A DNA stretch of 64,000 nucleotides from a virus (IMGVR_UViG_3300008952_000012:70530-134529), one strand, 5' to 3'; positions 13,807-42,210 are shown, counted from the first letter of the stretch. The notes: generated by a model not told the origin, from the letters alone. Translations and numbers: made by a program.

Positions 13807-13826
13807 CCCTGCCTAGTCTTTAGAGA

Positions 13827-14978
13827 TTAGAACGGGATGCTGTCGTCGTCTTCCTCGTCGTGCCCCGCCTCATAGTGCTTATCTAGGATGGCTTGAGCAG
13901 CCCCATCAAAGGGGTTGTCCCGGCCCATAGACTTTGCTTGGTCATCCAGATCCTGCATGCCCAAGAAGTAATTGAAGTCAAACGGCTCCAGAGACGTTGA
14001 ATCAACATCCTCAAGAGTCTCCGACTTCATTGCGCTCACAATGTGAAAAGACGTACGCCCACCACTGACTTGGTCAGCAGCAATCACAATGTCACACTCT
14101 TCCCAGCCAAGCTGGATTGGGTTGTCGCACCCTGGGGTATAGGTCTTTCGACTCCCATAACCCTTTGGCTTGACGCACTCTACCACAGGGTCTGCCATAC
14201 CTACGTATTCACAGTCTTCACACTCAACCGAAGATGACCGCAAGGCATCCTCGTCCTCCTCGGAGATTCCCTCCTTAGATGTGTGAGAGGCAAGCACCAC
14301 TCCACAGTCCCCACACTTGTACCCAACCGTACTAATTTCCCCTTCGGGGCAGCTAGCACATTTGTTGGACACGTCCCCGAGTTTCTCTAAGAGAAGACGC
14401 TTCTGTGAGGGCCATAGCTCCCACCAAAGCTTTCTTCCGTAGACAATCTCGTAGTCAGCGTGGGCTGAGCTTGGATGGCTGATGCGACCGTTACGGTCTG
14501 GTGCAGGCACTCGCTCAAAAGTATGGTACTCATACCCGTTGCTGCTCGTATGTGGGATCTTGTAAAAATCCTCCATCACGAACACGGTAACCGCACACTT
14601 CTCATCGGCCCAGAAGCTTTCATTCTCATCTTCTGCACAGTAGTAATAGAGAACGCACGGAAGCTCCCGCTCCCCGTTCCAGCTATTACTGATGATCTGC
14701 CGCTTCTGCCCGGAGGGTGTCGTTACCCACTTGGCTTGGTACTTGTAGAAAACGCTCTTGCCGGTTGTTGGAACGATCCGAATACGGGTTTCCATCTCGT
14801 CAGGCTTGAACTTGTTGTCGCGCATCCGAAGCTTCCATGCCGGAGGCCTCTTCTGCTCAAAGTTCCTTTTAGCGCCATTGCTTCCGTAGGACTTATTACC
14901 ACCCTTCTTAGAAAGCATTTTGCTTCGAACTTTGGATTCTTTCTGTTGTTTGTGAAAGTCATCAAAACTAATTGGCAT
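13827..14978 (-). CDS. Single-stranded DNA-binding protein (gp32-like) with Cys-rich insertion
   Basis: RIRIVP strand, acidic aromatic-ending tail DEEDDDSIPF, position between primase and polymerase. Confidence 0.65.
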   Translation of the reverse strand: MPISFDDFHKQQKESKVRSKMLSKKGGNKSYGSNGAKRNFEQKRPPAWKLRMRDNKFKPDEMETRIRIVPTTGKSVFYKYQAKWVTTPSGQKRQIISNSWNGERELPCVLYYYCAEDENESFWADEKCAVTVFVMEDFYKIPHTSSNGYEYHTFERVPAPDRNGRISHPSSAHADYEIVYGRKLWWELWPSQKRLLLEKLGDVSNKCASCPEGEISTVGYKCGDCGVVLASHTSKEGISEEDEDALRSSSVECEDCEYVGMADPVVECVKPKGYGSRKTYTPGCDNPIQLGWEECDIVIAADQVSGGRTSFHIVSAMKSETLEDVDSTSLEPFDFNYFLGMQDLDDQAKSMGRDNPFDGAAQAILDKHYEAGHDEEDDDSIPF

Positions 14979-14996
14979 TTTTTTCTCCTTTTTTGG

Positions 14997-15962
14997 TCAC
15001 GGCCTAAGCGCCGCCTCAACTGCCAGTCTTATCTCTGTCTTTGTTAAATCATCTGGGGATATAGGTTCATCTGACCTATAGTCAGCGACCCGCACCTCAA
15101 TACCGTATAATTGTCTAATAATTTTGTCCGTGGCCTCCCTTCCTGCTTGGTCGTTATCAAGAAAAAGAACGACTCTATTTGAAACCCGCTGAAGAAGGAG
15201 CGCCTGCTCCCTGCTCATATGGGAACCAAGTAGAGCAACAGTATCGGAATATCCGGACTGTACGCACCATAGGCACGCCTTGAAACCCTCGCATACAACA
15301 ACGGGCATGTCAATACATGTATACATCCTGCGCGGGTAGAACTTATCCAATCCGTACAGGATTTTCTTCTTGTTAAGCTCGTAACTACGGTCAATTTCGT
15401 GAAGCTCTGCTCGGTATATTTTGTACCTTGGGTGCTCACCACGAACAGTTCTTCCGGATATTCCGACAAGGTTACCGTTATGGTCCCGCAGGGCAAACGT
15501 TACACGCTTCCTTTTTCTATCAAAACCCACGTCGTAGCTCTTTAGGATTTCCGGGTCATACCCATCATCTACTAAGCTTTTCGGCAGGTATTCAAACATC
15601 CCAAGTATGGCCTCGGGCAGAGTTGGCTGCTCAAGACTCAAGGTGTGTAGGGTTGGTGGCTTAGGCGGGGGGCTGTCCGCCAACTCCTTCTTTATCGCGT
15701 CTATCAGGCTTCGGCCAACGTTCAACTGCCGGAGCAGACTTGTTAGCGTCCAGCCTTCGTTGCACGTATGGCAAAAGGACATCCCAATATGTCTAGAGGA
15801 GCTAGACTTACCAACGTACACGTAGAAGGATGGCTTACTTTCCAGACCAGACTTGTGGAATGGGCAGTAAGCAGGGATGTTATCTCCGGGAGTCTCCGCT
15901 TCTACGAAGCGGATATGCCCAGATAATATTGTGATGATCTCTTCCTTGGATATACCGATCAT
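14997..15962 (-). CDS. dnaG: DnaG-type primase (CHC2 zinc finger plus TOPRIM)
   Basis: CPFH..KPSF..CHTC; VCEG; LFLDNDQAG. Confidence 0.9.
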   Translation of the reverse strand: MIGISKEEIITILSGHIRFVEAETPGDNIPAYCPFHKSGLESKPSFYVYVGKSSSSRHIGMSFCHTCNEGWTLTSLLRQLNVGRSLIDAIKKELADSPPPKPPTLHTLSLEQPTLPEAILGMFEYLPKSLVDDGYDPEILKSYDVGFDRKRKRVTFALRDHNGNLVGISGRTVRGEHPRYKIYRAELHEIDRSYELNKKKILYGLDKFYPRRMYTCIDMPVVVCEGFKACLWCVQSGYSDTVALLGSHMSREQALLLQRVSNRVVLFLDNDQAGREATDKIIRQLYGIEVRVADYRSDEPISPDDLTKTEIRLAVEAALRP

Positions 15963-17386
15963 CCCATTGCCACATCCTCATCAATCTCATCAGGCCCCCT
16001 GTCTCCGCGAGATTGCTCCATTAATGGACTGGCGACAACGGCGGTCACCTCCGGGAGAGAGTTTTCCCCCCCAAAGCCATCACCACCCTCTTCTGGGTCT
16101 TCCATGATGTCGCCTATTGAGTACAGATTGTCGTGGGCGTAACCGAAGTTTTCGGCAGCCAACGCGTGGATCGTGAAACCCTCATCAGTCGTTTCCCTGG
16201 CGGCAGCCAAGTGTATACTGATTTCTTGTTTACGCTTGTGGTAAACCAATCTGATACCAACATCGCAGTCCATCACCGCCCCAGTGTTCATAGCAAGTGA
16301 CGCGGTGCCCCTTGACTTTGAATACTTGTACGCTGACCGCTCGTTCTCCTGCAGGATTGCCAGAATAGGAATACTCGTTGTCTTGGCAATCTGTTTGATC
16401 TGTCTGTTAATGGCAGACAAGACCTTCCAATCAAGAGCGTTTGCGCTGGTGTTCACTCCAGGCAATTCGAGCATGTAGGACGAGTCCAACAGAACAAAGT
16501 GTGGTCGGTAGATATCCATCTTGCGACGAATCTCTGACGGCCCACCTGGAGACCCATCGGCCCTGTCACAGTCTGTGAAAATCAGTTCTCCCGGAAAATC
16601 GGGGGCACATGTTTCTTCAACCGACTGAAGCAGGTGTGTTTGTTCTGCTACAGAAAGAGACGCTGACTTTAGACGCGTGTAGTTGATCCCAGCGTTTATA
16701 GCCGTAATCCTTCTACGCATCTGGGGCCACGTCATCTCCTTACTGTAGATTAGGACGCGCCTTCCAGACGAGAACAGCTTAGCCGCGATGACTAACCCAA
16801 ACCAAGTTTTCATCGACTTGGGCAAGGCCCACACCATGATGAAATCCCCAGGCTGTATCCCCTGAGTCGCGGCGTTTAACCGTGTCCAGGGCCAAGGCAT
16901 TCCTGTTAGCCCTTGCGTGTCACCCGTTCTCCGTAGTTCCTCAATAGTCTCCTCAAGAGCTACTTTGGAAAATACGACGTCTTTTGAGTTGGTCGTCTTT
17001 TCTTGAAGACTCCCCACTGCGTCATAAAGCGTTGTCAGCGCTCCGAACGGGTCTTGCGCCGTTTCTTCTTGCCACGCACCAACCGCTTTTTCGCATTCCC
17101 TTTTGAGGTAACTCCCTTTGATTTTTTCACAGAGGTCTTGGATGTTCTCCAGGGCTCGTGGCAAATCTAAGCTTGGGAATTGCTCTGAAAGCGTTTGTTC
17201 GCTGGGGACGTGCCCGAAATTGTTTGGTCTTCGGTAATGTGCATCTATCGTTGAGAACAGAGACTTAGCCTCCATAGACCCAAGCGTCCTAAAATGCACT
17301 CCCTCCTTTAGGACAGACTCCCACGCTTTCGGCGGATTGTCTGCGCGAATAATACTAGATATTAACTGCAACTCCCAGTTTGCCAT
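15959..17386 (-). CDS. dnaB: DnaB/SF4-like replicative helicase
   Basis: GMPWPWTRLNAATQGIQPGDFIMV, SKEM, LLDSSY, ILQ; adjacent to primase. Confidence 0.8.
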   Translation of the reverse strand: MANWELQLISSIIRADNPPKAWESVLKEGVHFRTLGSMEAKSLFSTIDAHYRRPNNFGHVPSEQTLSEQFPSLDLPRALENIQDLCEKIKGSYLKRECEKAVGAWQEETAQDPFGALTTLYDAVGSLQEKTTNSKDVVFSKVALEETIEELRRTGDTQGLTGMPWPWTRLNAATQGIQPGDFIMVWALPKSMKTWFGLVIAAKLFSSGRRVLIYSKEMTWPQMRRRITAINAGINYTRLKSASLSVAEQTHLLQSVEETCAPDFPGELIFTDCDRADGSPGGPSEIRRKMDIYRPHFVLLDSSYMLELPGVNTSANALDWKVLSAINRQIKQIAKTTSIPILAILQENERSAYKYSKSRGTASLAMNTGAVMDCDVGIRLVYHKRKQEISIHLAAARETTDEGFTIHALAAENFGYAHDNLYSIGDIMEDPEEGGDGFGGENSLPEVTAVVASPLMEQSRGDRGPDEIDEDVAMG

Positions 17387-17395
17387 GCTCCCTCC

Positions 17396-17701
17396 TTAGA
17401 TTTCCCTGGTAACTAGACTTTTTATCTGTTTGTTGATTCTTTCTTCATTGGCCTCTTCGGACTCTGCTACCCGGTTAAGAAAAGAGGATTCAATAGCGTC
17501 AATAAGGCTGTTTGCAGCCTCCTGGACCTCCTCGACAGTGCCAGCATCGTCCACGTCAACACTTCCACATGCCCAATCACCAATCCGGTACCCGACCTTT
17601 GCGGTTACCTTTGATTGGCTGGATGGGCCGTGGATGTATTTTGCGACGTGAACTTCGTAGCACACAATCGTGTCAATCTTCACGTTCTCTAATTTTTTCA
17701 T
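17396..17701 (-). CDS. Hypothetical protein
   Basis: Tiling with overlapping ATGA junction. Confidence 0.55.
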   Translation of the reverse strand: MKKLENVKIDTIVCYEVHVAKYIHGPSSQSKVTAKVGYRIGDWACGSVDVDDAGTVEEVQEAANSLIDAIESSFLNRVAESEEANEERINKQIKSLVTREI

Positions 17702-18117
17702 TCTTCAAACCTGCCTTTGAACAAGCGCTCTTGTATGTCCGATACATGCCCAAGAAGAGCTTTTCCAAGGTGGTCTCGGGAACTCTCCCAAGCTAAGTCG
17801 TATGCCATTTCGTGACCGGTCCTGATTGAGTCCTCATCCTGATCACACCTAAGCGTTACAGAAGAAAACACCTCAACACCGTAGGGGACTTTATCCCACT
17901 GACCATCCCCGTATCTAACTGCGTCAGAGACTTTGGTAGCCACGGATGCGGTCACGGTTGCAGTGTCCCCATCCCCACTCACCAGGGAAGTAACTGGGAC
18001 CTGTTCTTCGATTCTTTCAGCCATGTCTTTCTCCTCAAAGTTAGCGTCTTTCCATGATTTTCTAATGTGGACAGTGCGGGACGCATGAGCGCCCCGCACC
18101 TTGAAGCCTTTGCCCAT
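17698..18117 (-). CDS. Hypothetical protein
   Basis: Tiling in the minus-strand operon. Confidence 0.55.
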   Translation of the reverse strand: MGKGFKVRGAHASRTVHIRKSWKDANFEEKDMAERIEEQVPVTSLVSGDGDTATVTASVATKVSDAVRYGDGQWDKVPYGVEVFSSVTLRCDQDEDSIRTGHEMAYDLAWESSRDHLGKALLGHVSDIQERLFKGRFEE

Positions 18118-18549
18118 CTAGCTCACCTTGATCTTGATCTCCGAGGGACCGTTGACTCTAGGTGTTCCAAGTACCTTTTCACGGAACTTGTTGACCTGAT
18201 CAGCGTTAAACTGTCCAGAGATCAAGCCCTGCTCAATGGCCTTGTTGTTGATTTTTCCGATAACCCCGGGGGTAGTCAAAACCTCCATGGGGAGATCGTG
18301 AGCAGTGTAGTCCCAAGACTCGGGAGCCTTTTGTCGGGTAAAGGAACCAATAGTCAAAGAGTCGTTACCCTCTACGGATTTCAAAGCAGCTTTGGCTTCT
18401 TTGTGTAGAGCGTTGTACCGCTCGGCAAGGTCATAAAGAATATCGAAAGTCTTTTGGTGATCATCGATAAACTCAGCCACTGCGGTTCGCGCTTCTTCAA
18501 AACGGTTGCAGGCTTCCTCAGCCTTCTTTCTTGTACTTCTGTAGCTCAT
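18118..18549 (-). CDS. Hypothetical protein, N-terminal coiled coil (Gam/gp157-like architecture)
   Basis: GGAGG RBS; long helix followed by a beta-rich segment. Confidence 0.55.
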   Translation of the reverse strand: MSYRSTRKKAEEACNRFEEARTAVAEFIDDHQKTFDILYDLAERYNALHKEAKAALKSVEGNDSLTIGSFTRQKAPESWDYTAHDLPMEVLTTPGVIGKINNKAIEQGLISGQFNADQVNKFREKVLGTPRVNGPSEIKIKVS

Positions 18550-18560
18550 TTGTGTCCTCC

Positions 18561-19214
18561 TTAGACGTTGAACTGTTTTGCCACATCAAGGGCGTCCCTG
18601 ATGTTTCCAATTGTCTTATTCCACATACCTCCGACGTTTTGTGACGGGTTGCGGAACAGTTGATTGATTGATGGCAGAACCATCATGGGAACCGGGTATT
18701 CAACCAAGTTTCCCTGTATGAAAGCTTCTGTCACCCTTCCACGCGCATCTGACAGCGATGTGGGCCTCGTCGTAACGCCCTTCATGGCGGCGCTCCCAAA
18801 GGCTAAGATGACGTGTGGCTCAATTATGTTTATCTCCGCATGCAAGCGTTCTTGGCAAGCGGATATCTCGCCCGTCTTTGGTGCGGGTAGCATTTCTATT
18901 CGCCCACGAGTTCTCGGGCTTAAGCTAGCGCTAGGGCAAGAGACGACGGGGGTGACCCACACGTAGCTTGGGTCTATCCCGGAGCGCTTGAAAAGCGATG
19001 AGAGAAACTTCCCCTCACCGCCATCAAGCGGGTTCCCCGTAACGGCTGCTCTTGGGCTTACGCGGTCAACTACCGCTACAATTTTAGTGTGTATTTTCCC
19101 CCGACCACTGATCATAACCTTTCGGTTCTTGTGGAGCGGGCACGCCGAGCAACCCCTGTATTCAAAGAGCACGGCGTCAATCTTCTCTTCCAATGCTCTT
19201 GTGTTTGAATCCAT
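18561..19214 (-). CDS. Family 4 uracil-DNA glycosylase-like protein with degenerate active site
   Basis: CSACPLH, CP, EISAC..RL..EI..I.P.VILAFG; GEAP and HP motifs absent. Confidence 0.75.
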   Translation of the reverse strand: MDSNTRALEEKIDAVLFEYRGCSACPLHKNRKVMISGRGKIHTKIVAVVDRVSPRAAVTGNPLDGGEGKFLSSLFKRSGIDPSYVWVTPVVSCPSASLSPRTRGRIEMLPAPKTGEISACQERLHAEINIIEPHVILAFGSAAMKGVTTRPTSLSDARGRVTEAFIQGNLVEYPVPMMVLPSINQLFRNPSQNVGGMWNKTIGNIRDALDVAKQFNV

Positions 19215-20607
19215 TTGCTAAAATCTTCCGGCGTAAGTTTCTACACATAGCCCCTGCTGGGCCAAATTTATAATCGTCGATTACAACTACAATTGGTTCC
19301 TTTTTGTTTGGGTATCGTCTTTCGATCCTACCCTTACCTTGCTGAAAAGAGCCCCAGGCCTTGAACGGCGTAGCAAAAACAAGCGTGTCTAGCGCGGAAA
19401 CATCCAAACCCTCCCTGGCTATGCCGAAGGTCGCAAACGTTACGTTGCTATCACGAATTACTTTTGTGCGCATATCACCTGAGGTGTCCCCAGTGACAAC
19501 ACCGGCTGTATACCTTTCCATACAGTGAGTGTCGAGCAACTTTCGCAAAAGTATGTCGGGGTGGTCTTTACTGTGGGTAAGGACTAGGATTTTTCTTCCC
19601 TTCCCCAAAGCGTCGTATACGACTGAAAGGATTTCCCTGTTTCGGGTCCCAGACTTTGAGAAGTATGTGTACATTTTACCGGCAGAAAATTCCCCGGTAA
19701 TATCACGAATTTCCGACGCGTCCTTTGGCATGGTTGTCCCAACCTTCTTAAAGAAGATCTTGGCCTCAAGGTCGCCAACGAGATCGCTATGGAATATTGG
19801 TCCAATATGCGAGTAGTAGACGTCCTCAAGACCATCTTCCCTTACGGGGGTTGCGGTCAATCCGTATCTATTACCGTAAAATAAAGGAGCCGTTTGGCTG
19901 AATGTGGACGCGGACAGGTGATGAACTTCATCAAAAATCACGGTCCCAAATCTAGCCCTGATCTCCTGGGGTACATCGTGCGCTCTTTTGGACAGCGTGT
20001 GTATCATTGCTAGTACCAGGGGCTTGTCCCATTCTTCTTTTGGGCCCTGCACGATGCCTATATCACTCTCCTGTATACCCAGGAACTCTAGCGCCCGTTC
20101 TTTCCATTGGTCCATTAGCCCAGAGTTGTTAACAATGACTATGGCTGGGTAGCCTCTTTCTGCTATCTTTTTTAGAGCGAGTACAGTTTTTCCCTTGCCA
20201 CAGGCTAGGTTCAAAACCCCAAAAGATTGCTTTTTGAAGGCCTCCCAGGCGATTTTTTGATCTTTGTCTCTGGGGGTAATTCTATCCCCAAAATCAAACT
20301 TCTCAAGAGAATCACTGAGCGGAAGCTCCGTCCAGTGTCCTATTTTAGATTTCCACTCTTCTTCTGTAAAAAAGTGTCGAGCTATTACTACGTAATCCCC
20401 AACCTCCCTTGCGAGTGGATATGTATTAGTATCTCCTGTCCGTTCATTAACCGATACGATCTTTGCAGCGTTTATTAGCGCTGATTTGTTTGGGATGTCC
20501 TCAGAAGGTATCCACATCCAAGCCGAACGATATGATCCGGAAAGGGACTTGCCTGAATCGGACTCGGGAAAATAAACCTTGTCCGAGTTCTTCTTCTTGT
20601 TAGCCAA
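19177..20607 (-). CDS. SF2 helicase (UvsW/XPB-like)
   Basis: LACGKGKT, IFDEVHH, GLTATP, REGLD, QGKGRIER. Confidence 0.9.
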   Translation of the reverse strand: MANKKKNSDKVYFPESDSGKSLSGSYRSAWMWIPSEDIPNKSALINAAKIVSVNERTGDTNTYPLAREVGDYVVIARHFFTEEEWKSKIGHWTELPLSDSLEKFDFGDRITPRDKDQKIAWEAFKKQSFGVLNLACGKGKTVLALKKIAERGYPAIVIVNNSGLMDQWKERALEFLGIQESDIGIVQGPKEEWDKPLVLAMIHTLSKRAHDVPQEIRARFGTVIFDEVHHLSASTFSQTAPLFYGNRYGLTATPVREDGLEDVYYSHIGPIFHSDLVGDLEAKIFFKKVGTTMPKDASEIRDITGEFSAGKMYTYFSKSGTRNREILSVVYDALGKGRKILVLTHSKDHPDILLRKLLDTHCMERYTAGVVTGDTSGDMRTKVIRDSNVTFATFGIAREGLDVSALDTLVFATPFKAWGSFQQGKGRIERRYPNKKEPIVVVIDDYKFGPAGAMCRNLRRKILANGFKHKSIGRED

Positions 20608-20608
20608 G

Positions 20609-21049
20609 TCAGTCCTCCAGTATTTTTGTTATGTTTTGTCGAATAAAGTATTCGATACTGTCCGTCCTTTTTCCGTCCAGGTTCTCAAAGAAGAGGTTAA
20701 GTAGCCGGTCTACCTTGTCGGCATCCACCTCAGTTTCAGTAATAAACTTCTTAAGTTCGGAATTTGCTGATGGTCCAAATGCCCGTTTTTTGGCTAGTTT
20801 TTTGTCGCTTCTCTCTTTGCAGACAGAGGCTATAATCTGCTTAGCCTCCTGATCCACATCGGGGTCCACGTTTAGCGCCACGAACATTTTCATTAGGCTT
20901 TGGTTGGAGGGAGCCGAACCGCCAGATTCATACAGGCGGACGGTTTCCCTACTCAGGCCACATTCGGTCGCGAACTGCCTAGAGGAGTACCCTCGCTCCG
21001 TTCGCATCCTTTGGAGCATGGCCCCAAAGTGGTTTACTTTTTCTCCCAC
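20609..21049 (-). CDS. XRE-family HTH transcriptional regulator
   Basis: FGAMLQRMRTERGYSSRQFATECGLSRETVRLYESG..PS. Confidence 0.85.
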   Translation of the reverse strand: MGEKVNHFGAMLQRMRTERGYSSRQFATECGLSRETVRLYESGGSAPSNQSLMKMFVALNVDPDVDQEAKQIIASVCKERSDKKLAKKRAFGPSANSELKKFITETEVDADKVDRLLNLFFENLDGKRTDSIEYFIRQNITKILED

Positions 21050-21051
21050 AG

Positions 21052-21345
21052 CTACTCCTCATCATCATCGGATTCCCCGCCGTCTTGACAGCTATCTTTG
21101 TATACGACAAGATCTTCTTTGTCACAAGTTTCTTCCTGGTCAAGAAGGTGTTGATCTGAATCTTCTGGATTTGCGAGTTGCTTTGACGTGTTATTATTTC
21201 CTTGTGATCGGAGTTGATTGGAAATGGAAGACAGCATATCGGCTAAGCCGTCTATAGCTATCTCAAGGAAGTCTTTTCCTTGCGGGTCCTGTAACTCCTT
21301 TGGTACTTCTACTTTAATGGTATATCTATTATCATCAGTTGACAT
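21052..21345 (-). CDS. Hypothetical acidic protein, first gene of the leftward unit
   Basis: GGAGG RBS before ATG 21345. Confidence 0.55.
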   Translation of the reverse strand: MSTDDNRYTIKVEVPKELQDPQGKDFLEIAIDGLADMLSSISNQLRSQGNNNTSKQLANPEDSDQHLLDQEETCDKEDLVVYKDSCQDGGESDDDEE

Positions 21346-21391
21346 GTTCACTAGCCTCCGGGTTTGGTGTAATTGAGTGTGGGTAGCATGG

Positions 21392-21401
21392 TGCTTATAC
21401 C
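21392..21401 (-). promoter_or_regulatory. Candidate phage promoter motif copy 3 (GGTATAAGCA) in the divergent region
   Basis: 47 nt upstream of the 21345 start. Confidence 0.5.
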
Positions 21402-21431
21402 AAAAAGCTAATAGCCCTTGTGGAGAACGGC

Positions 21432-22481
21432 ATGACAGAATTTTCAGGTACATACGACCATTACGACGATAACGGCCTTTTGCTCCGAAAGGAGATGGGC
21501 GAGAAAGGGATTCCCCCTGTGATCAAGACCGCTGCTGATTTATCGAATCCAGCAACGAGGCATGAGGGGGATTACGCGGTTGTCGCGGAGACACAGCGGG
21601 GGGTTGCTTACAAGTATCCAGTATCAGATGCTGGAAACGCTGTAGCGTCTGCCGTATATTTTTCTGAGTACGGGCACAAACTCCCGCAAGAACTCAGAAA
21701 GACCGCAGCAGCAGCCATTAATGAAGCCCTCTCTGGTTTCGGGTTTACGCCCCCGGAGGACCTTACCAAGACAGCCTCGATGGAACTTGGTTACAGCGGA
21801 GAGGGGGACAACATGTCTCTTGAAAAGCTGTTTGGTGTTGGCGGCGAAGACGACCCAATGGAGGTTGTGGAAGACGCTTTTTCCAAGCTGAGCCCCCGTG
21901 GCAAGAGCCGATTGGCCATGCAGGTCAAGGAGGCCGGTCTGCTTGAGAACGCCCCGGAAGAGCTTTCTGACTACTTGTCGCGAGACATCCCCGGAGTTGG
22001 GCCTAACTTTGACACTGCTGTTGACACCCGGAAGCTTGTCCTCTTGGACGCAAACGCTTCGGAGGAGCTAGACGAGCTTCAAAAGACATCGCAGTCTAAG
22101 TTTCTTAACCCAGAAGCCGTTGCGGAAGAACTTTCCCTGTTTGACCAAAAGCACCAGATCACGCATTTGTATGATCGCGTAATAATCGATCCATGGAAAG
22201 CGGTTCACAGCGAGTCTGAAAAGACGGCTTCTTACGGGATTAAGATTGACGCTGACCAAATTAGTGATGCTGTTGACAGTTCTAAGGTTGTTGAAATCAA
22301 CGGTAAAGAGTATACATCTGACGCAATTAATTCCTGGACCAACGATTCTGGGGCAGAAAAGCTGACCGACGCCTTTGGCGAAGAGTTCGCTAATGAATTC
22401 AAGGAAGACCCTGCGGTTGTTCTTGAGAGCCTCCCGGTTACTCACAGGAATGCAATAGCGCGGATGATTGATGATAACTGA
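21432..22481 (+). CDS. Putative virion/head protein with four KTA motifs
   Basis: IKTAA, RKTAA, TKTAS, EKTAS; first gene of the structural strand; GGAG RBS. Confidence 0.55.
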   Translation: MTEFSGTYDHYDDNGLLLRKEMGEKGIPPVIKTAADLSNPATRHEGDYAVVAETQRGVAYKYPVSDAGNAVASAVYFSEYGHKLPQELRKTAAAAINEALSGFGFTPPEDLTKTASMELGYSGEGDNMSLEKLFGVGGEDDPMEVVEDAFSKLSPRGKSRLAMQVKEAGLLENAPEELSDYLSRDIPGVGPNFDTAVDTRKLVLLDANASEELDELQKTSQSKFLNPEAVAEELSLFDQKHQITHLYDRVIIDPWKAVHSESEKTASYGIKIDADQISDAVDSSKVVEINGKEYTSDAINSWTNDSGAEKLTDAFGEEFANEFKEDPAVVLESLPVTHRNAIARMIDDN

Positions 22482-25179: not shown

Positions 25180-25410
25180 CTATGTATTTTGAGTTGCTAT
25201 CAGTATTGCGGACATCTCGTTGCATCTATCGCACCTACCTCTCTGGTAGAACGATGAAGGATGGTCCTCTTGTTTGATACAACGAGAACATACCCACGCA
25301 ACGCAACCTGTATTCTCAATGAAGTGAATACATTCGCCGCAGTTTCTGGGTTCGTTACACCAGATCCCAGCAACATCACAGGCAATGGCTTTTGGTGCGC
25401 GGGTACTCAT
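25180..25410 (-). CDS. Small Cys-rich protein
   Basis: 76 aa with 9 Cys including CGEC, CSRC, CDRC. Confidence 0.55.
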   Translation of the reverse strand: MSTRAPKAIACDVAGIWCNEPRNCGECIHFIENTGCVAWVCSRCIKQEDHPSSFYQRGRCDRCNEMSAILIATQNT

Positions 25411-25422
25411 TTAGTTAACTAC

Positions 25423-25542
25423 CTAGTTGCAGGGTACGAGTGCGCCATTAACGGCGTTCGCAAACTCCGCGCACGTACTCAAGTAAACGGTTTTCGTCAC
25501 AGTTCTTGTGTAAATCCTACTAAGATTTTGTACAAGTTTCAT
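25423..25542 (-). CDS. 39-aa peptide MKLVQNLSRIYTRTVTKTVYLSTCAEFANAVNGALVPCN (below ORF-track cutoff)
   Basis: AGGAG RBS 7 nt before ATG; downstream of promoter motif copy 4; ends 12 nt before the next minus-strand ORF. Confidence 0.55.
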   Translation of the reverse strand: MKLVQNLSRIYTRTVTKTVYLSTCAEFANAVNGALVPCN

Positions 25543-25581
25543 ATCGCTTCTCCTTTTTGTTTAGGGCAGTATTACCCATAA

Positions 25582-25624: not shown

Positions 25625-28600
25625 ATGTCTAATATTCTAGATCCCCAGAGGGTGATGCAAGCCCTCGAAGACGGGACCGTAGAGCAAATAAGTAGCTTCT
25701 TCCCACTGGAAGGTAAGAAGCATGCCTTGGTCGCGAACAAGATCTACTCGGGCGGGGAAGTAGATTTAGATGATATTGCAAGCCAGAAGAATGCGAGACT
25801 CCGTGGCCGGACATGGGCACAGGGGCTGTATGGCGATTTCACCCTTGTTAACAAGGAAACCGGCAAGCCGGTTGACTCTGTAAAAAGGCTTAAAATAGCC
25901 AGCCTCCCTAAGATCACTAGGCGATACAGTTACATTGTTGATGGGACCGAGTACCAAGTAGACAACCAGTGGAGACTTAAGTCTGGCGTCTACACGAGAA
26001 GAAAGGCCAACGGGGAGCTTGAAAGCCAATTCAATCTAGCTGAGGGGCGCGGGTTCCGAATGGGCTTTGACCCAGCTAAGCGGCGATTCCTGGTTACCTA
26101 CGGGTCCTCTAACGTGCAGCTTCTCCCAGTCCTTCAAGCCCTAGGCGTTTCAGACGAGAAGATTAGAAGCGTTTGGGGAGACACGCTGTACTCCAGAAGT
26201 ATGGCGGATAAAAAGCGCGGGGAGGTCGTGAAGCTCGCAAAGGTTCTCTCGCGGGGCGCGACCCCGGCTAACGATTCTGAGGCGGCAGAGATTGTTAAAG
26301 CCTCTTACGGGGAAACCAAACTCCTCCCGGACACTACTAAGATAACGCTGGGAACATCGTTTTCAGCGGTTACGGGTGACGCGCTGCTTGCGACATCATC
26401 TAAATTATTAGGTGTTAATAAGGGCGAGCAGGAAGTCGATAACCGCGATTCGTTACGCTTCAAGGAACTTTGGTCGATCAATGACCACATCCCAGAACGA
26501 ATTCAAAACTCACAGCGAAGAATTAAGTACAAGCTGGGCAATAACATCGATAGGAAAGACAGCGTCCGATCCATTATTACGTCTGACATCTTTAACATAC
26601 CCATTAAGACTTTTTTCACGTCTACGAGCCTTTCGCAGCAGACATCGCAAGTAAACCCAGTAGACATGATGGGCGGGTTCCTTAGGACCACCATTATGGG
26701 ACAGGGTGGGATTATGAGCGAGAACGCTGTGTCTGAAGACGCTAAGCTCATTGACTCCAGCTACCTTGGGTTCATAGACCCCGTACATACCCCAGAAGGA
26801 AAAAGGTCTGGGATAAGCGGTCACTTAGCTTTGGGTGTGGAGAAGCACGGCACAACCCCTAAGATTCAGGTATACGATGTTGCGGCAAAGAAGTTTGCCT
26901 CCAAGAGCCCGGGCGAGCTTGTGGGGAAGGCCGTAGCTTTCCCTGATCAGTATTCTTTTTCCGGCAAGGCCCCAAAAGCTCTTGAGGACATGATCACCGT
27001 CGTAAAAAAAGACGGTGGTGACCCGGAGAAGGTTCTCCCTTCTGAGGTTGATTTCATAGTCAAAACGCCCAAGCAGTTATTCTCCATAACTTCTAATCTT
27101 GTCCCGTTTCTACCGTCTGATCAAGCTAACCGCGCAGGGATGGCCACAAGACACCTTGAGCAAGCCATCTCCCTCAAAGACCGGGAAGAGCCACTGGTTC
27201 AGGTTACGTCTGGAAATCCCAGTGAGAAGTACGGCACCTGGGAAAAGATCGTGGGGTCCTTCACCAGCCACACAAGCCGCGTTTCCGGTACGGTGGAGAC
27301 CGTTGGGAAGAACAAAGTTGTCATCAAGGCCGCCAACGGGGAAAAGCATGTGGTGCCCCTTTATGAGAACTTCCCCCTCAACGATAAAAAGGCATTCATA
27401 TCGAGCACCCCAACTGTGGCCAAGGGCGACAAGGTAAAGGTCGGCCAATCCGTAGCCGACACTAACTTCACGAAGAACGGGACCCTAGCCATGGGCACAA
27501 ATCTTCGTGTTGGGTATCTTCCGTATAAAGGGCTGGTTTTCGAGGACGGTATCGTAATCAGCGAAGGCGCTTCCAAGAAGCTGACCAGCGAGCATCTCCA
27601 CAAGAATAGGGCATATGTAGAGAAGTCTATGGCCGTGGGCCTAAAGAAGTTTAGAGCGAACTTCCCGGGATACGTGACTGAAGAGAACGCCACAAAGCTT
27701 GACGAGGACGGGGTTATTAAAAAAGGTCAAAAAGTTGACCCCGGCGACGTATTAATGACGGTTTTACAGAAAACCGAGCCGTCAAAAGAGCAGATACTTC
27801 TTAAAGGCATCCATAAGTCACTCATAAGGCCGTACAAGAACAAGTCCGTTACGTGGGACAAACCGTATACTGGTGTTGTCACTGACGTGGTTCGTAATGG
27901 TCGGGAGATCGTTGCCTACGTCAAGACAGAAGAGTCTGCTGACGTTGGGGATAAGCTTACCGGTAGGCACGGCAATAAGGGCGTTATTACGGCGGTGATA
28001 CCGGACGAGGAGATGCCTAAAGATGCCGAGGGCAACCCCATTCAACTTATTCTCAACCCCTCCGGTGTCCCAGGAAGGATCAACCTCGGGCAGGTTTTGG
28101 AGACCAGTCTCGGGAAAGTCGCTAAAAAGCGCGGAGAGCCCTATGCCGTTGAAAATTTCCAAGCTAACGACGGTAAGAAGATTGTTACCGTACGCGAGCA
28201 TAAACGTAAGATTAAGACTACCGGCGGGGACACTAAAGAGATCACGGTTAAAGAGCATAAGCGTGAGCTTGGGTACCAGGAAAGAGTTAAACAGATTCTA
28301 TCTGAAGAGGGTGTCTCTGAAACGACTGAACTGTTTGACCCTGAGACCGGTAAGAGTTTGGGGGAGGTGTTGGTTGGGCAACACTACACGCTGAAACTCA
28401 TGCATCAGGTCGATAAGAAGCTCAGATCCCGGGCTCACGGCTACGGCCACGACTACGATGCTAACTTGGTGCCAAAGGGCGGAGGCACGTCAGGGGCTGC
28501 CCAGAGATTCGGTGAGCTAGGCCTGTATGCGATGCTTGCCCACGGCGCGACATCGAATATTCGAGAGGCGCTAACGTATAAAAGCGATAAGGCGCAAGAC

Positions 28601-31600
28601 GAGGTCTGGACAGCTATTCAGACCGGATCGATTCTCCCCGCCCCAAAACCCTCCTTTGCGTACGAAAAATTCCTTGCTTACATGCAGGCCCTAGGCCTCA
28701 ACGTAGAGAAGGAGGGTAACGGTTTAATTGTTAGCCCCCTTACGGATAAGCAGATCCGATCTGCCTCGAACGGAGAGATAAAGGACGGGAGTAAAGTAAT
28801 CCGTGGAAAGGATTTAAAGCCTGAAAAGGACGGATTGTTTGACGAGACCATCACTGGCGGACCCGGGGGTAAGCACTGGTCTCACATCGCACTAGGGATG
28901 ACCATCCCAAACCCGATGTTCGAAAAGTCAATTCGATCCCTTCTCGGAATAACCGGCAAAGAGTACGACAGCGTCGTAGCTGGCACGCACGGGTTTAATG
29001 AGAACCGTGAAATCGTTCCCGCTGGCGAGGGGGTAGCCTCCGGCCCAGAAGGCTTAGCCAAGGCTCTCGGGGGCGTGAACGTAGACAAGGATCTCGCAAG
29101 TGCGAAAACGGATATCAAAACAGCGAGAAGAAACAACCTCGATAAGCTCAACAAGAAAATTAAATATCTGTTGATGCTGAAGAAGAACGACCTGTCCCCA
29201 GAGGAGGCGTTCACTACATCCGCTGTGCCGGTCTTACCACCAGTATTCAGGCCAATTACAGCCATGGAGGGCGGTGACCTGAATATTGACGGCACAAACA
29301 TGCTTTATCGGGACATCGCAATACTTAACCAGAAGGTGAAGGAATCAGCCGGAGTTCTTCCGGACGAGGCCATTGCGGCTCTCCGTGGCGACTTGTACGA
29401 CGCAGTTGATGCGCTGATGGGAGTATCATCACCGTCCGAGTCGGCCACCACAATGGACGGGCAGACGCGACCTCCCGGCATTCTTACCATTCTTTCCGGA
29501 AGGCAGTCTCCCAAGCAGAGCTTCTTCCACAAGAGGATTCTGGACAGGAAACAAGACATCACCATGCGTTCGGTGATTGTCCCAAATATGGATCTTCATC
29601 TTGACGAGATTGGCTTACCCAAGAAGGGGGCCATGAAGATTTATAGACCGTTCGTGGTCAAAGAGCTTGTCCGAATGGGGTACACGCCACTTAAGGCCCG
29701 TGAGGAGATCGAGAAGAAATCACCTCTGGCCGACAGAGCATTAGAGGTTGCTGTCACTAAGAGGCCAGTGTTCTTTAAGCGCGACCCGGTGCTTCACAAG
29801 TTTGGGATAATGGCATTCAAGCCACGGCTTCATAACGAATCCTCTATCCACATTCACCCGCTTGTTACCGGCGGTTTCAACGCTGACTTTGACGGTGACA
29901 CTATGGCGGTGTTTCTTCCGGTTTCCCAGGAGTCTATTGACGAGGCTTACAAACTCCTCCCATCAAAGAACCTGTTTAATCCGGCCACCGGGAAAGTTAT
30001 GTATCAGCCCACGCTTGAGGGTCAGCTAGGGCTGTACCTACTCACGCAAATGGGTAAAAAAACGAACAAAGCTTTTGGGAGTGACAAGGAAGCAATAGAG
30101 GCGGCTAAGTCAGGAAAAACCTCGATGACCGATGTTGTTTCGGTCGGGGGAGTAAAGACAACTGCAGGGAGATTACTGTTTAATAACTCACTTCCTAAGA
30201 AGGTTAGATCAAACGATATCCTCTCAAACCCCGACATGGTCATGGGCAAGAAAAATCTGCAGAGCGTTCTCCGGGACGTTGCAACCAAAACCCCGGCTGA
30301 GTTCCAGGTGGCTGCGGACAAGATTAAGGACCTGGGGTTTGGTCATGCCTACAACATCGGGTTCTCTTTTGCTTTGGGGGACTTTGACGCCCTTAGAGAC
30401 ATGCGCACCAAGGCGATGAAGGCAGCAAAAGTTAAAGAAGCCGTAATCCGCAAGCAAGAGCGCATGAAGATGATCTCCTCGGAGGCGGCTGATAAGAAGG
30501 TCGTAGACCTGTACACGGCAGTGACCCAAGACATGTCCTCAGAGGCAAAGAAGGTCTTGGACAAGAAGGACAACAAGCTGAGGCTCATGGAAAAAGCTGG
30601 CGTTAAACCGGCGTGGGCCCAATTGCAGCAGATGCTAATCGGACCAATGCTGCTCGAAAACGCCAAAGGGAGGGTCATACCGGTACCGGTGGATCGGTCC
30701 TATTCAGAGGGCTTACGGTCTTCAGACTACTGGGTTGCGTCTTCCGGGGCGCGAAAAGGGCTTATCGAAAAAGTACAGTCCGTGCAAAAGCCCGGAGCGC
30801 TTAACAAGCAGTTGGCCAATACGATGATGTCCTATGTCATAACCGAAAATGACTGTGGAACGACAAAGGGCATCGCTTTAGATGCGGCAGACTCTGATCT
30901 TGTTGATCGGTTCACAGCCAAGCCCTTAAGCGCGAAGGGGCTCAAGATTTCAGCGAACACGGCGCTTACACCAGCGCTGGTCTCTAAGATCAAGAGCGCG
31001 AAGGTGTCTAAGATAGTCGTTAAGTCGCCGCTGAAATGTGAATCCAAGAAAGGTCTTTGCTCAAAGTGTTACGGAATACAGAGCAACGGACTTCCGATCT
31101 CAAAGGGGACAAACATTGGGATTATCGCTGGCACCGCTCTGGGGGAGCGCGGGACGCAGCTTTCAATGAAAACGTTCCACACCGGAGGGGTAGCAGGATC
31201 TTCCGGCGGGGTGGTCGGCGGAATCGACAGGATCAGCCAGTTGCTGAAGATGCCAGCTACGCTACCCAACGCTGCTGTTTTGTCACCGGTGTCGGCTACG
31301 GTGTCCAGTATCAAAGAGAGCCCCGTTGGCGGTTACGACCTAACAATCGGGAGCGAGGACATTTACGTCCCAGCCGGTAGAACCTTGAGTATATCCAAGG
31401 GGTCAAAGGTCAAAAAGGGGCAGAAGATCTCTAGCGGAATTATCGACCCTAGAGATCTGCTTGAGAAAACGAACGTAGACACAGTCCAGGCGTACATCGC
31501 GGACGAAATAAATAAGGTGTACAAAACAGAGGGGATAAAGCGGCGAAACATAGAGGTGGTAACTAAGGCGATCACCAACCTTGGGAGAGTCGTTAATCCT

Positions 31601-31894
31601 GGTGGATCAGACTTTATTCGCAATGATTATATATCTACGTCTTACGCGAATGCGTTAAACAGGTCTGGGAAGCTGAAAGAACCCATCGTTGTTGCGCCGA
31701 CGCTTCGGGGCATAGAAACTCTTCCCCTTGACCAAACAACGGACTGGGTAGCGAGGCTTCAGTATAGAAAATTAAAAGAAACCTTTATACGAGCAGCAAA
31801 CGAGGGCTGGGAATCTGATATCCATGGGGTTCATCCAACGCCCGGAATAGCTTATTCTGCTGAATTCGGGAAAGGCGAGGAGGGCCCCTACTAA
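25625..31894 (+). CDS. rpoBC: Single-chain fused beta-beta' multisubunit-type RNA polymerase (2089 aa)
   Basis: beta: GDKLTGRHGNKG, LNPSGVPGRINLGQ, YTLKLMHQVDKK, QRFGE; beta': KPEKDGLF, VLPPVFRP, KRDPVLH, NADFDGD (nt 29879-29899), GARKG, CSKCYG, GTQLSMKTFHTGG. Confidence 0.95.
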   Translation: MSNILDPQRVMQALEDGTVEQISSFFPLEGKKHALVANKIYSGGEVDLDDIASQKNARLRGRTWAQGLYGDFTLVNKETGKPVDSVKRLKIASLPKITRRYSYIVDGTEYQVDNQWRLKSGVYTRRKANGELESQFNLAEGRGFRMGFDPAKRRFLVTYGSSNVQLLPVLQALGVSDEKIRSVWGDTLYSRSMADKKRGEVVKLAKVLSRGATPANDSEAAEIVKASYGETKLLPDTTKITLGTSFSAVTGDALLATSSKLLGVNKGEQEVDNRDSLRFKELWSINDHIPERIQNSQRRIKYKLGNNIDRKDSVRSIITSDIFNIPIKTFFTSTSLSQQTSQVNPVDMMGGFLRTTIMGQGGIMSENAVSEDAKLIDSSYLGFIDPVHTPEGKRSGISGHLALGVEKHGTTPKIQVYDVAAKKFASKSPGELVGKAVAFPDQYSFSGKAPKALEDMITVVKKDGGDPEKVLPSEVDFIVKTPKQLFSITSNLVPFLPSDQANRAGMATRHLEQAISLKDREEPLVQVTSGNPSEKYGTWEKIVGSFTSHTSRVSGTVETVGKNKVVIKAANGEKHVVPLYENFPLNDKKAFISSTPTVAKGDKVKVGQSVADTNFTKNGTLAMGTNLRVGYLPYKGLVFEDGIVISEGASKKLTSEHLHKNRAYVEKSMAVGLKKFRANFPGYVTEENATKLDEDGVIKKGQKVDPGDVLMTVLQKTEPSKEQILLKGIHKSLIRPYKNKSVTWDKPYTGVVTDVVRNGREIVAYVKTEESADVGDKLTGRHGNKGVITAVIPDEEMPKDAEGNPIQLILNPSGVPGRINLGQVLETSLGKVAKKRGEPYAVENFQANDGKKIVTVREHKRKIKTTGGDTKEITVKEHKRELGYQERVKQILSEEGVSETTELFDPETGKSLGEVLVGQHYTLKLMHQVDKKLRSRAHGYGHDYDANLVPKGGGTSGAAQRFGELGLYAMLAHGATSNIREALTYKSDKAQDEVWTAIQTGSILPAPKPSFAYEKFLAYMQALGLNVEKEGNGLIVSPLTDKQIRSASNGEIKDGSKVIRGKDLKPEKDGLFDETITGGPGGKHWSHIALGMTIPNPMFEKSIRSLLGITGKEYDSVVAGTHGFNENREIVPAGEGVASGPEGLAKALGGVNVDKDLASAKTDIKTARRNNLDKLNKKIKYLLMLKKNDLSPEEAFTTSAVPVLPPVFRPITAMEGGDLNIDGTNMLYRDIAILNQKVKESAGVLPDEAIAALRGDLYDAVDALMGVSSPSESATTMDGQTRPPGILTILSGRQSPKQSFFHKRILDRKQDITMRSVIVPNMDLHLDEIGLPKKGAMKIYRPFVVKELVRMGYTPLKAREEIEKKSPLADRALEVAVTKRPVFFKRDPVLHKFGIMAFKPRLHNESSIHIHPLVTGGFNADFDGDTMAVFLPVSQESIDEAYKLLPSKNLFNPATGKVMYQPTLEGQLGLYLLTQMGKKTNKAFGSDKEAIEAAKSGKTSMTDVVSVGGVKTTAGRLLFNNSLPKKVRSNDILSNPDMVMGKKNLQSVLRDVATKTPAEFQVAADKIKDLGFGHAYNIGFSFALGDFDALRDMRTKAMKAAKVKEAVIRKQERMKMISSEAADKKVVDLYTAVTQDMSSEAKKVLDKKDNKLRLMEKAGVKPAWAQLQQMLIGPMLLENAKGRVIPVPVDRSYSEGLRSSDYWVASSGARKGLIEKVQSVQKPGALNKQLANTMMSYVITENDCGTTKGIALDAADSDLVDRFTAKPLSAKGLKISANTALTPALVSKIKSAKVSKIVVKSPLKCESKKGLCSKCYGIQSNGLPISKGTNIGIIAGTALGERGTQLSMKTFHTGGVAGSSGGVVGGIDRISQLLKMPATLPNAAVLSPVSATVSSIKESPVGGYDLTIGSEDIYVPAGRTLSISKGSKVKKGQKISSGIIDPRDLLEKTNVDTVQAYIADEINKVYKTEGIKRRNIEVVTKAITNLGRVVNPGGSDFIRNDYISTSYANALNRSGKLKEPIVVAPTLRGIETLPLDQTTDWVARLQYRKLKETFIRAANEGWESDIHGVHPTPGIAYSAEFGKGEEGPY

Positions 31895-33836: not shown

Positions 33837-33941
33837 AGGCAAAGGAGTAGTCAGTGACTTCAACAACTGATAAATACGCTGTATTATTAAAACGGACTAA
33901 GAACCAAGCGACACAGGATTCTAAGTCGTAGGAGTTAAATC

Positions 33942-40369: not shown

Positions 40370-40547
40370 TTACAACAGTACCGGCCTTCTTATTGACCGA
40401 GATCTTGGCGCGTGGGATGAAATCTTTGACTAATTGTATTACCAATTGTTTATTATGCTGTGATATTGGTGGCCACAGCTTTAGCACGTAGGTGTTCTCG
40501 TCTGTATGAGTGTATTCGATAAAATCATTACCGACCGCTCTAGACAA
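40350..40547 (-). CDS. Possible small antisense ORF filling the gap before terminase
   Basis: Protein-like composition, but no RBS. Confidence 0.3.
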   Translation of the reverse strand: MSRAVGNDFIEYTHTDENTYVLKLWPPISQHNKQLVIQLVKDFIPRAKISVNKKAGTVVITLRHR

Positions 40548-42210
40548 CGAGCCCGCAAACTTATGGATGGTTTCCTTGGCAATGTCGCTCCCGTATGAAA
40601 TAGCAGAGGATAACCCCGAACGGTCCTCACTGTTCCCTTCAGAATTTGTTGGGTCCTTTTTCAGAATTCCCTCCTTGGGCGAGCTTGAGCGGTTTTCGTT
40701 TAAGGGCAGGCGCTACCTCGTGCCCATATATGACACCCCAGCACAGAGGCTACTGCTTCAGTGTGGTCGTCAGGTTGAGAAGAGTACAACTCTTGGAAAT
40801 ATTATACTAACATATTCTTTGTTACGTAGGCACTTCAGGTCTCTGTTTGTGAGTCCCACACAGCAGCAGACTGAGACATTCTCCCGCGACAGAATCGCCA
40901 CGCCTACTGAACTATCGGATACTCTGAAAGCATTTACGCGTGGTGATGGGACCAAAGACAACGTGCTTTACAAAAAGTACGTAACTGGGTCCGACATCAC
41001 TCTCCGGTACGCCTTTCTTCATGCTGACCGTGTTCGTGGTATTTCGGCAGATATGCTTCTTCTGGATGAGATCCAGGATATTTTGACCGACGTTATCCCT
41101 GTTATCGAGGAAGCGCTGTCCCACTCCCCGTTTAAGATACTTAGGTACTCAGGGACGCCCAAGAGTTTAGACAATACGATTAGTTACTACTGGAACCAGT
41201 TCTCTACCCAGAATGAATGGGTCATCCCGTGCGAGAGATGTAATAAGTGGAACATGATCGGTGAGAACAACATTGGGGACCACGGGCTTATTTGCGAGAA
41301 GTGCGGGAAGGGTATCTCGGCTGATCACCCAAAAGCGCGGTGGGCATCCATGCGATCACCGGCGTGGCTAAGAAATCCGCCGGTCAAGGAGCCATTCGAG
41401 GGGTATAGAATACCCCAGGTCATAGCTCCATGGGTTAACTGGGGCGATATTCTTGATAAGCGGAAGCGCTATACGAGGGCCCAGTTTTTCAACGAAGTTC
41501 TCGGCCTTGGTTATGACTCTGGGGAGAAACCCATAACCAGGGAGTTGCTCATAGATCACTGTTCCAACGAGCGTAATGACCTTGAAACAGCAGTGAAAAT
41601 CAGTTCCCGTGGAACCGGGAGTTGCTGCATCGGGATTGACTGGGGGACCGGCGAGAATACGTACACCGTCTTAACGGTTGGTAAGTACTTCGCTAATAAG
41701 TTCAGGTTTATCTATTTTAAACGATTTGAGGGGCCTGAAGCTGAGCCCGAGCCCATGATGAACAAGATCATCAACCTTGTGCACACATTTAAGGCGGAGT
41801 GTGTTGGGGTTGACTACGGCGGAGGTTTTGACAGGAACGACAAGTTGATACGAACGCTGGGGCTGACACGTATCGCAAGATATCAGTATGTAAATACACG
41901 ACGTATATACTTCGACAAAACGCTCGCACGGTTTATGGTTAATAGGACGGAGGCACTGATGGCGGTCATTAATGCCCTCAACCGGAAAGATACATTTCAA
42001 CTTCCTAGTTGGGAGTCTTTCGAGACACCCTACGCAAGCGACCTTCTTTCAGTATTTACTGAGTACAACGAGGCACGAAGAACGACTATTGTTAATAAGA
42101 CACCGGGCACAACGGACGATACATTGCATGCAATGACTTACTGTTTTCTGGCGTCTATGATAAAGCACCCAAGACCTGATATTATAGCCCCGAGTGGAGA
42201 CAGAGACTAA
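40510..42210 (+). CDS. terL: Terminase large subunit (true start may be the ATG at 40582)
   Basis: GRQVEKST, RVRGISAD.LLLDEIQD, YSGTPK, CxxC..CxxC insert, nuclease IGIDWG and DDTLHA. Confidence 0.9.
   Translation: MYSIKSLPTALDNEPANLWMVSLAMSLPYEIAEDNPERSSLFPSEFVGSFFRIPSLGELERFSFKGRRYLVPIYDTPAQRLLLQCGRQVEKSTTLGNIILTYSLLRRHFRSLFVSPTQQQTETFSRDRIATPTELSDTLKAFTRGDGTKDNVLYKKYVTGSDITLRYAFLHADRVRGISADMLLLDEIQDILTDVIPVIEEALSHSPFKILRYSGTPKSLDNTISYYWNQFSTQNEWVIPCERCNKWNMIGENNIGDHGLICEKCGKGISADHPKARWASMRSPAWLRNPPVKEPFEGYRIPQVIAPWVNWGDILDKRKRYTRAQFFNEVLGLGYDSGEKPITRELLIDHCSNERNDLETAVKISSRGTGSCCIGIDWGTGENTYTVLTVGKYFANKFRFIYFKRFEGPEAEPEPMMNKIINLVHTFKAECVGVDYGGGFDRNDKLIRTLGLTRIARYQYVNTRRIYFDKTLARFMVNRTEALMAVINALNRKDTFQLPSWESFETPYASDLLSVFTEYNEARRTTIVNKTPGTTDDTLHAMTYCFLASMIKHPRPDIIAPSGDRD

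Follow-up and report, generated by a model that had tools for sequence, protein, structure and literature searches.

RNA polymerases (RNAPs) of the cellular type are normally built from five or more chains, and a viral locus in which the β and β′ subunits appear as one protein raises the question of whether such a chain is real, where it stands among known polymerases and what else it would need in order to transcribe a phage genome. The locus lies in a stretch of 64,000 nucleotides (nt), positions 70530-134529 of IMGVR_UViG_3300008952_000012 (the window, to which coordinates refer unless stated otherwise), taken from an IMG/VR virus record of 134.5 kb, for which CheckV estimates a completeness of 75%; the genome that encodes the enzyme is that of an uncultured marine phage, about 180 kb in size. 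An initial annotation of the window had described the open reading frame (ORF) at 25625-31894 (+) as a phage-encoded, single-chain and minimised bacterial-type polymerase, possibly carried in the virion. The evidence assembled here points, with moderate confidence, to a phage-owned RNAP core of bacterial type made as a single polypeptide, for which the use of a phage sigma (σ) factor, independence from α and ω, and packaging into the particle are proposed.

The joined chain and its family

Translation of the ORF gives 2089 stop-free codons in which, as the initial annotation had it, all β domains lie N-terminal to the β′ domains: Pfam places Rpb2_3, Rpb2_6, and Rpb2_7 at amino acids (aa) 340-996 and Rpb1_1, Rpb1_2, Rpb1_3, and Rpb1_5 at aa 1165-1876. 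When PDB sequences are searched with phmmer, bacterial β′ is matched at E ~1e-112 and bacterial β at E ~1e-90, the β match spanning phage aa 13-1027 against the 1100-residue β chain 8syi_C. Subunit numbering, here and below, comes from alignment and BLAST to Salmonella β (1342 aa) and β′ (locus L086); phage aa 1030 aligns to β residue 1340 of 1342 and phage aa 1029 to β′ residue 15, residues 1-14 of β′ being dropped at the joint. By this alignment the end of β runs straight into the start of β′, effectively without a linker, at nt ~28712, next to the almost linkerless junction that had been placed near aa 1030 and nt ~28710. AlphaFold, applied to aa 940-1345, folds the joint as a tight β-hairpin with strands at aa 1025-1030 and 1033-1038 and a two-residue turn, and the model (pLDDT 77, rising above 90 in its core) matches the β′ clamp of bacterial structures (Foldseek E ~1e-15).

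The same joint is found well beyond this one record. Homologues fall into at least 120 clusters at 90% identity, are 41-89% identical over 100% of the query, and measure 2010-2117 aa, or 2294-3258 aa with inteins; their contigs reach ~200 kb, many being 170-200 kb. Of 78 IMG/VR loci retrieved, ~70 are complete, and each complete locus reads as a single stop-free frame, 2060-2220 aa in length or more where inteins are present. In a search of 1.84 billion cluster representatives with a 701-aa query that spans the junction, the best 150 matches (E ≤ 1e-127) all cross the joint, which is thus shared by at least 150 clusters at 50% identity; the family comes from marine, vent, peat, and gut-associated samples. 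The joint is free of insertions and deletions in 88 of 88 intein-free relatives aligned with MAFFT (faster setting). A vent-metagenome contig from another study bridges nt 28601-29066 without a gap and with 7 substitutions, all 7 synonymous, and contigs of sequencing runs X1 and X2, which leave nt ~28672-28772 uncovered, are neutral for the joint. A stop or frameshift at the junction, which the initial annotation had named as grounds for rejecting the fusion, was looked for and was found neither in the 88 relatives, nor in the complete IMG/VR loci, nor in the independent contig.

Judged from these comparisons, the chain is intact and under purifying selection, and its phage origin is upheld by the virus record itself and by the portal, large terminase subunit (TerL), and major capsid protein encoded around the gene. 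Far from being a lone oddity, the enzyme belongs to a very large family that has hardly been studied, although some of its relatives are cultured and already annotated, and phages with contractile tails and genomes of 170-200 kb keep the single frame throughout a very large clade. A literature search found no paper describing a family of single-chain β-β′ phage RNAPs.

The catalytic elements that the initial annotation had listed as intact—NADFDGD, the β lysines, the bridge helix, the trigger loop, and the C-terminal β′ Zn site—are all present in the alignment, with G1708 of the bridge helix corresponding to β′ G778. Across 88 relatives DFDGD never varies in its three Asp or its Gly, other positions of the motif are 0.89-0.99 conserved, and the β active-site lysine motif (GDK...GRHGNKG) is conserved in the same set. 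A trigger loop free of the SI3 insert had also been claimed, which holds for most of SI3 (~166 residues, lost in four gaps between β′ 940 and 1179) but not for the whole of it. SI2 (β 941-1049) and the SI1 region are absent, and the last ~44 residues of β′ are missing relative to the E. coli-type subunit. Against a total of 1342 + 1407 = 2749 aa for E. coli-type β and β′, the phage chain falls 660 aa short, in line with the earlier figure of roughly 600; according to the alignment, this difference is mostly accounted for by the missing lineage-specific insertions SI1, SI2, and SI3. To call the enzyme near-minimal was an overstatement: its β part (1030 aa) and β′ part (1059 aa) are only ~5-10% below the smallest bacterial subunits sampled (β from ~1080 aa and β′ from ~1140 aa), the savings lying mainly in SI1, SI2, and SI3. 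A loss that the initial annotation missed is that of the N-terminal β′ Zn ribbon (C70, C72, C85, C88), which is deleted family-wide, including in the deep members L059, Arash, and D69; these three do keep the joint, the active site, and the second Zn site.

Inteins occur in 33 of 121 relatives, one or two per gene, at eight or more sites of which most break conserved or catalytic motifs. The commonest site lies between GDK and the following L (aa ~779); others lie at HTPEG (aa ~390), GVPGR (~819), just past NADFDGD (~1425), in the Zn site (~1812), after MKxFH in the trigger loop (~1850), and at aa ~636 and ~985. So many inteins in catalytic motifs mark the RNAP gene as a hot spot for mobile elements.

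Position relative to cellular and phage polymerases

A scan of one genome per GTDB species yielded 598 confirmed cellular β′ matches, the best of them 26-32% identical to the phage enzyme and scattered over Actinomycetota, Bacillota, Chloroflexota, Patescibacteria, Atribacterota, and others; because the best matches are spread over so many phyla, no donor phylum stands out. In a tree of concatenated β and β′ (58 rows, 2028 columns, FastTree only), 25 cellular rows form one clade and 32 phage rows another, both with support of 100. Bacterial phyla are 46-58% identical to one another and 25-30% identical to the phage enzyme, and deep members of the phage family are only 26-32% identical among themselves. 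On this comparison of sequences the phage family lies outside all sampled bacteria, and the nesting within a cellular clade that the initial annotation had named as counting against its reading is seen in neither the tree, the GTDB scan nor the identities.

The closest cultured relatives, whose existence had been missed, are Salmonella phage Arash and Vibrio phages D69, D148, and D181, which belong to the same clade and are 29-32% identical to the window enzyme. Arash and D69 share with it the linkerless joint, the loss of the Zn ribbon, and the gene order portal-small ORF-polymerase, and Arash has a homologous σ, SNF2 helicase, terminase, and capsid protein. They differ in that their chain is cut between the equivalents of aa 1512 and 1513 (β′ 572/573) with no residue lost, into pieces of ~1525 and ~606 aa, whereas the chain in the window and in all metagenomic relatives is continuous. 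The DNA between the pieces holds two small genes in D69 and nine genes in Arash (between gp206 and gp216). Arash and D69 branch among the single-chain forms, after L059 and L060 (support 96); since they are nested in this way and cellular β′ is mostly unsplit, the split form would most parsimoniously be a secondary fission of a single-chain ancestor. In D181 and D148, a homing endonuclease gene is annotated within the stretch spanning the polymerase pieces, a hint as to how the cut came about or persists. The records of these cultured phages label the enzyme “subunit beta” or “hypothetical,” with no comment on the fusion.

Joined subunits have precedents in cells, and an engineered fusion of E. 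coli β and β′ exists as well. The natural fusions of Helicobacteraceae and Wolbachia (Zakharova et al., 1999 and Lane and Darst, 2010, as cited in PMC7483510) likewise run from the β C-terminus to the β′ N-terminus in one ORF, a topology compatible with function. However, they are ordinary enzymes of their phyla, with α, ω, and the Zn ribbon, whereas the window enzyme is 25-30% identical to any bacterium compared, a set of tree rows other than Helicobacter and Wolbachia.

Among phage enzymes, those of the phiKZ/AR9 type are also phage-owned two-barrel polymerases without α or ω, one set of which is in the particle; they differ in having β and β′ each split into at least two proteins, no σ70-type factor, and two sets of subunits (PMC8287921, PMC9209446), whereas in the window family the chain is unsplit, each complete genome has a single polymerase gene, and a σ is encoded. 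The polymerases of crAss-like phage phi14:2 (gp66), Thermus phage P23-45 (gp96), and N4 (virion RNAP) resemble the window enzyme in the life-cycle logic proposed for it, in which one large polypeptide travels in the particle and starts transcription. The crAss and P23-45 enzymes are too divergent, and the N4 enzyme is unrelated (T7-like), so that none matches cellular profiles; the window enzyme, in contrast, matches bacterial β and β′ over its own full length (E ~1e-90 to 1e-112).

Membership in the mReC group had been raised as something that could not be checked. Like the window enzyme, the polymerases of mReC and similar phages (Cobetia phage Carin-5, Rhizobium phage RHph_Y65) comprise phage-encoded, bacterial-like, deep-branching β and β′, and in some mReC-like phages a σ gene lies beside the polymerase genes. 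The mReC tables list β and β′ as different proteins (for example, 1002 + 891, 1364 + 1004, and 1407 + 1301 aa), contain no entry near 2089 aa, and are accompanied by a text in which crAss phages are the sole case of fusion named (Weinheimer and Aylward, 2020; PMC7481178). The mReC capsids match PF07068 and the terminases PF03237/VOG01069 (PMC7481178), unlike the window capsid protein, which has no Pfam match, and its terminase, which matches PF05876. Carin-5 and RHph_Y65 have separate β and β′ genes, located in the replication module; RHph_Y65 keeps the β′ Zn ribbon that the window family has lost, and the Carin-5 enzyme does not group with the window family in the tree. With mReC compared through its published tables only, membership is not supported by the features tested, namely the separate subunits and the other capsid and terminase families.

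A phage sigma factor and the virion neighborhood

The initial annotation missed a phage σ factor. The record encodes, outside the window, a 299-aa ORF that matches Sigma70_r3 at 34 bits (Pfam cut-off 25.3) and Sigma70_r4 weakly. A σ gene is present in five of the five relatives rated 100% complete (three with terminal repeats), each of which has exactly one RNAP gene, and two of the five carry an extra small σ. Homologues of the σ number at least 160 (E ≤ 1e-5), several on contigs of 170-182 kb, sizes that match those of RNAP-bearing contigs. Neither α (PF01000) nor ω (PF01192) was matched in the source record or in the five complete relatives. The T7-like polymerase family PF00940 had no match in the relatives, a search in which the control genomes likewise gave none and which is thus neutral. 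Two further candidates were rejected: ORF 21420-22481, at the position of Arash gp196, as a second σ (no Pfam or PHROG match), and the small ORF 25261-25581 as an ω-like partner (no Pfam match, and conserved in only 8 loci).

A predicted complex of the σ with RNAP aa 940-1345 scored 0.72, against 0.00 for the best of three controls. Of 80 solved complexes 58 attain the mark that it passes, as do 2 of 110 mismatched pairs, figures that apply only roughly here because the prediction used custom alignments. At least 46% of contacts agree between runs, the partner pLDDT is at least 62, and the predicted interface joins RNAP aa 1219-1260, in the clamp helices, to σ aa 84-128. The pair is a textbook-like one, and the pass may reflect only likeness to solved complexes of σ region 2 with the β′ clamp helix.

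The only words enriched in the intergenic DNA of the record are ribosome-binding-site words, T-runs, and TATTAT(T), the last at 5-10 fold (for example, at 5550-5786, 33837-33941, and 40434-40509); by its sequence, TATTAT(T) is a −10-like element. Terminator-like sites around the RNAP gene occur at chance level.

The RNAP gene lies in a co-directional block that runs portal, small ORF, RNAP, 485-aa protein, unknowns, SNF2 helicase, terminase, and capsid protein (Table 1). The portal precedes RNAP in 41 loci, the 485-aa protein directly follows it in 52 distinct loci, and in 41 to 65 loci the RNAP gene is embedded among co-directional virion genes of this kind. A model of the 485-aa protein (pLDDT 65) has an N-terminal OB-like barrel and a β-rich body and resembles membrane-piercing spikes, namely R2 pyocin, phi92 gp138, P2 gpV, and VgrG (Foldseek probability 1.0, E 7e-5 to 4e-3, with low template-modeling scores), which makes it reasonable to place RNAP, as had been done, between portal and spike. 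No homologue of the 485-aa protein was detected in the Arash and D69 stretches compared. The 485-aa protein is translationally coupled to RNAP.

Particles of Arash have been analyzed by proteomics, and gp206, the larger piece of its polymerase, gave the top spectrum count (3516), above the major capsid protein; gp216, the σ factor gp10, and the helicase gp217, an abundant particle protein, were also detected (PMC10585845). By analogy with Arash, and given its gene position, the window enzyme is probably packaged in the virion, a fair reading of the two lines taken together.

Table 1. Coordinates of the polymerase, its parts, and associated genes (window positions, except where marked as outside the window).
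Feature	Position	Strand	Basis or remark
Fused β-β′ RNAP core, one ORF, 2089 aa	25625..31894	+	Translation, Pfam, phmmer
β module, aa 1-1030	25625..28714	+	Without SI1 and SI2; flap and flap-tip helix region kept
β active-site motif GDKLTGRHGNKG, aa 775-786	27947..27982	+	K777, K785 = E. coli-type K1065, K1073
Linkerless β/β′ joint ...NVEKEG-NGLIV..., aa 1026-1036	28700..28732	+	Alignment, model
β′ module, aa 1031-2089	28715..31891	+	Without first 14 residues, Zn ribbon, most of SI3, and last ~44 residues
Site of deleted N-terminal β′ Zn ribbon, GGPGGKHWSHIAL, aa 1078-1090	28856..28894	+	Cysteine-free
Clamp helices, aa 1219-1262, predicted docking site of phage σ	29279..29410	+	Alignment, model
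Catalytic NADFDGD, aa 1419-1425	29879..29899	+	= β′ 458-464
aa 1512/1513, split point in Arash (gp206/gp216) and D69	30158..30163	+	= β′ T572/T573; continuous here
Second Zn site, C1744, C1805, C1812, C1815	30854..31069	+	= β′ C814, C888, C895, C898; family-invariant
Trigger-loop region MKTFHTGG	31142..31249	+	H1852 = H936; without most of SI3
Portal protein, 673 aa	23158..25179	+	Homologue of Arash gp204
Spike-like protein, 485 aa	31894..33351	+	Start overlaps RNAP stop (TAATG)
SNF2/RapA-like helicase/ATPase, 606 aa	38419..40239	+	Homologue of Arash gp217
Terminase	40510-42210		Pfam PF05876
Capsid protein	50191-51387		No Pfam match
Phage σ, 299-aa ORF	G000:C1:34543-35442 (outside window)		30% identical to Arash gp10

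Elsewhere in the neighborhood, 9 of 10 neighboring proteins had no match in PHROGs. About 25 minus-strand genes occupy window 4734-21453 (−) and meet the virion block head to head at 21420-21453. Giant ORFs lie upstream, at window 2-4123 (+) and G000:C1:7965-74652 (1373, 1877, 1601, 1187, 991, 2716, 2293, 1777, and 2518 aa); one of them begins with Baseplate_J, another contains Ig, FN3, and cadherin domains, and Pfam gives no match for the others. Outside the window, a 529-aa ORF (G000:C1:3928-5517, −) has TROVE (Ro60) and vWA domains and resembles the RNA-binding protein Ro60.

Proposed mode of action, alternatives and meaning

In the mechanism that we propose, the phage σ would dock on the clamp helices and direct the enzyme to phage promoters, a step that we regard as likely. 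The covalent β-β′ joint would stand in for the assembly role of α2 and ω, so that the core would work without host subunits; this is held to be somewhat favored, because the joint and its hairpin tie the two halves together and the ω-binding tail is gone. The enzyme would be made late, together with the head proteins, packed in the capsid with σ and the SNF2 ATPase, and injected along with the DNA, so that early transcription could begin without the host polymerase, a course of events that we regard as modestly probable. The same enzyme would also serve later phases, perhaps with a second σ. The strongest form of the proposal, a self-sufficient, σ-dependent, single-polypeptide RNAP packed with σ and the SNF2 ATPase and passing through the contractile tail to launch infection, is tentative, and we would sooner expect some part of it to fail than all of it to stand.

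Several observations weigh against this proposal. The source record is 75% complete, so that the absence of α and ω is argued from its relatives, and analogues of either subunit could be too divergent for Pfam, or those of the host could be used. The 29 intergenic gaps of this same incomplete record yielded no long repeated promoter motif, and a scan for the σ70 consensus around the RNAP gene gave fewer matches than did shuffled sequences. The tree comes from FastTree only and lacks an archaeal outgroup, and its bacteria, picked as best hits, are an uneven sample. The Arash particle list contains 116 of 272 proteins, metabolic enzymes included, and its authors allow for carry-over of abundant intracellular proteins (PMC10585845); the Arash enzyme is, moreover, only 29-31% identical to that of the window, and the single-chain members are known solely as sequences.

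A rather unlikely alternative is that the enzyme is made during infection for middle and late genes only and is no part of the virion, its adjacency to the portal being accidental. The particle evidence does come from Arash alone, with its very inclusive proteome of 116 proteins, and since complete relatives have a single RNAP gene, the same enzyme must in any case serve later phases too. This alternative leaves unexplained, however, the recurrence of the gene in co-directional virion blocks across 41 to 65 loci and the rank of the Arash polymerase above the major capsid protein in spectrum count; for an enzyme needed early, a place among late genes is easiest to understand if the particle carries it over. 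The bacterial β′ C-terminal tail wraps ω, and enzymes of the phiKZ/AR9 type reportedly work without α and ω, both of which bear on the unlikely case of a hybrid enzyme whose phage chain needs the host α dimer, ω, or the host σ. Such a hybrid is suggested by a fold that is of bacterial type throughout, by the failure to find a phage α or ω, and by the resemblance of the enriched intergenic TATTAT to an ordinary −10 element; yet the β′ tail is missing, the phage has its own conserved σ, and at 25-30% identity host-specific contacts to α are unlikely to have been kept across a family whose hosts are as different as Salmonella, Vibrio, and those of marine and peat samples.

That the enzyme is simply a published mReC member (Weinheimer and Aylward, 2020), and hence nothing new, seems quite improbable. 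IMG/VR was among the sources mined for mReC, the two groups each branch apart from cellular clades, and some mReC enzymes are of similar total size (β of ~1000 aa plus β′ of ~890-980 aa), but their subunits are separate, none is ~2089 aa long, the capsid and terminase families differ, and Carin-5 falls outside the window family. An assembly chimera, or a cellular rpoBC in which a sequencing error erased the stop codon, has a negligible probability: the same open joint recurs in hundreds of independent assemblies, by which we take this explanation to be excluded, and the gene is flanked by virus genes on both sides and lacks a close cellular relative.

What the family offers is a widespread natural single-chain enzyme with full-length similarity to bacterial β and β′ that seems to need only a σ factor. 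If the proposed phage-owned, σ-dependent polymerase is confirmed, it would be the simplest natural holoenzyme of the cellular type known, with two proteins in all, and would stand as a virion polymerase of a distinct kind. It would be useful as a simple model for assembly, for initiation, and for the roles of α, ω, and the Zn ribbon, and possibly as a tool for transcription orthogonal to the host. The cultured members Arash and Vibrio phages D69, D148, and D181 make the family directly testable, and host-independent transcription of this kind may be a common strategy among phages of 170-200 kb.

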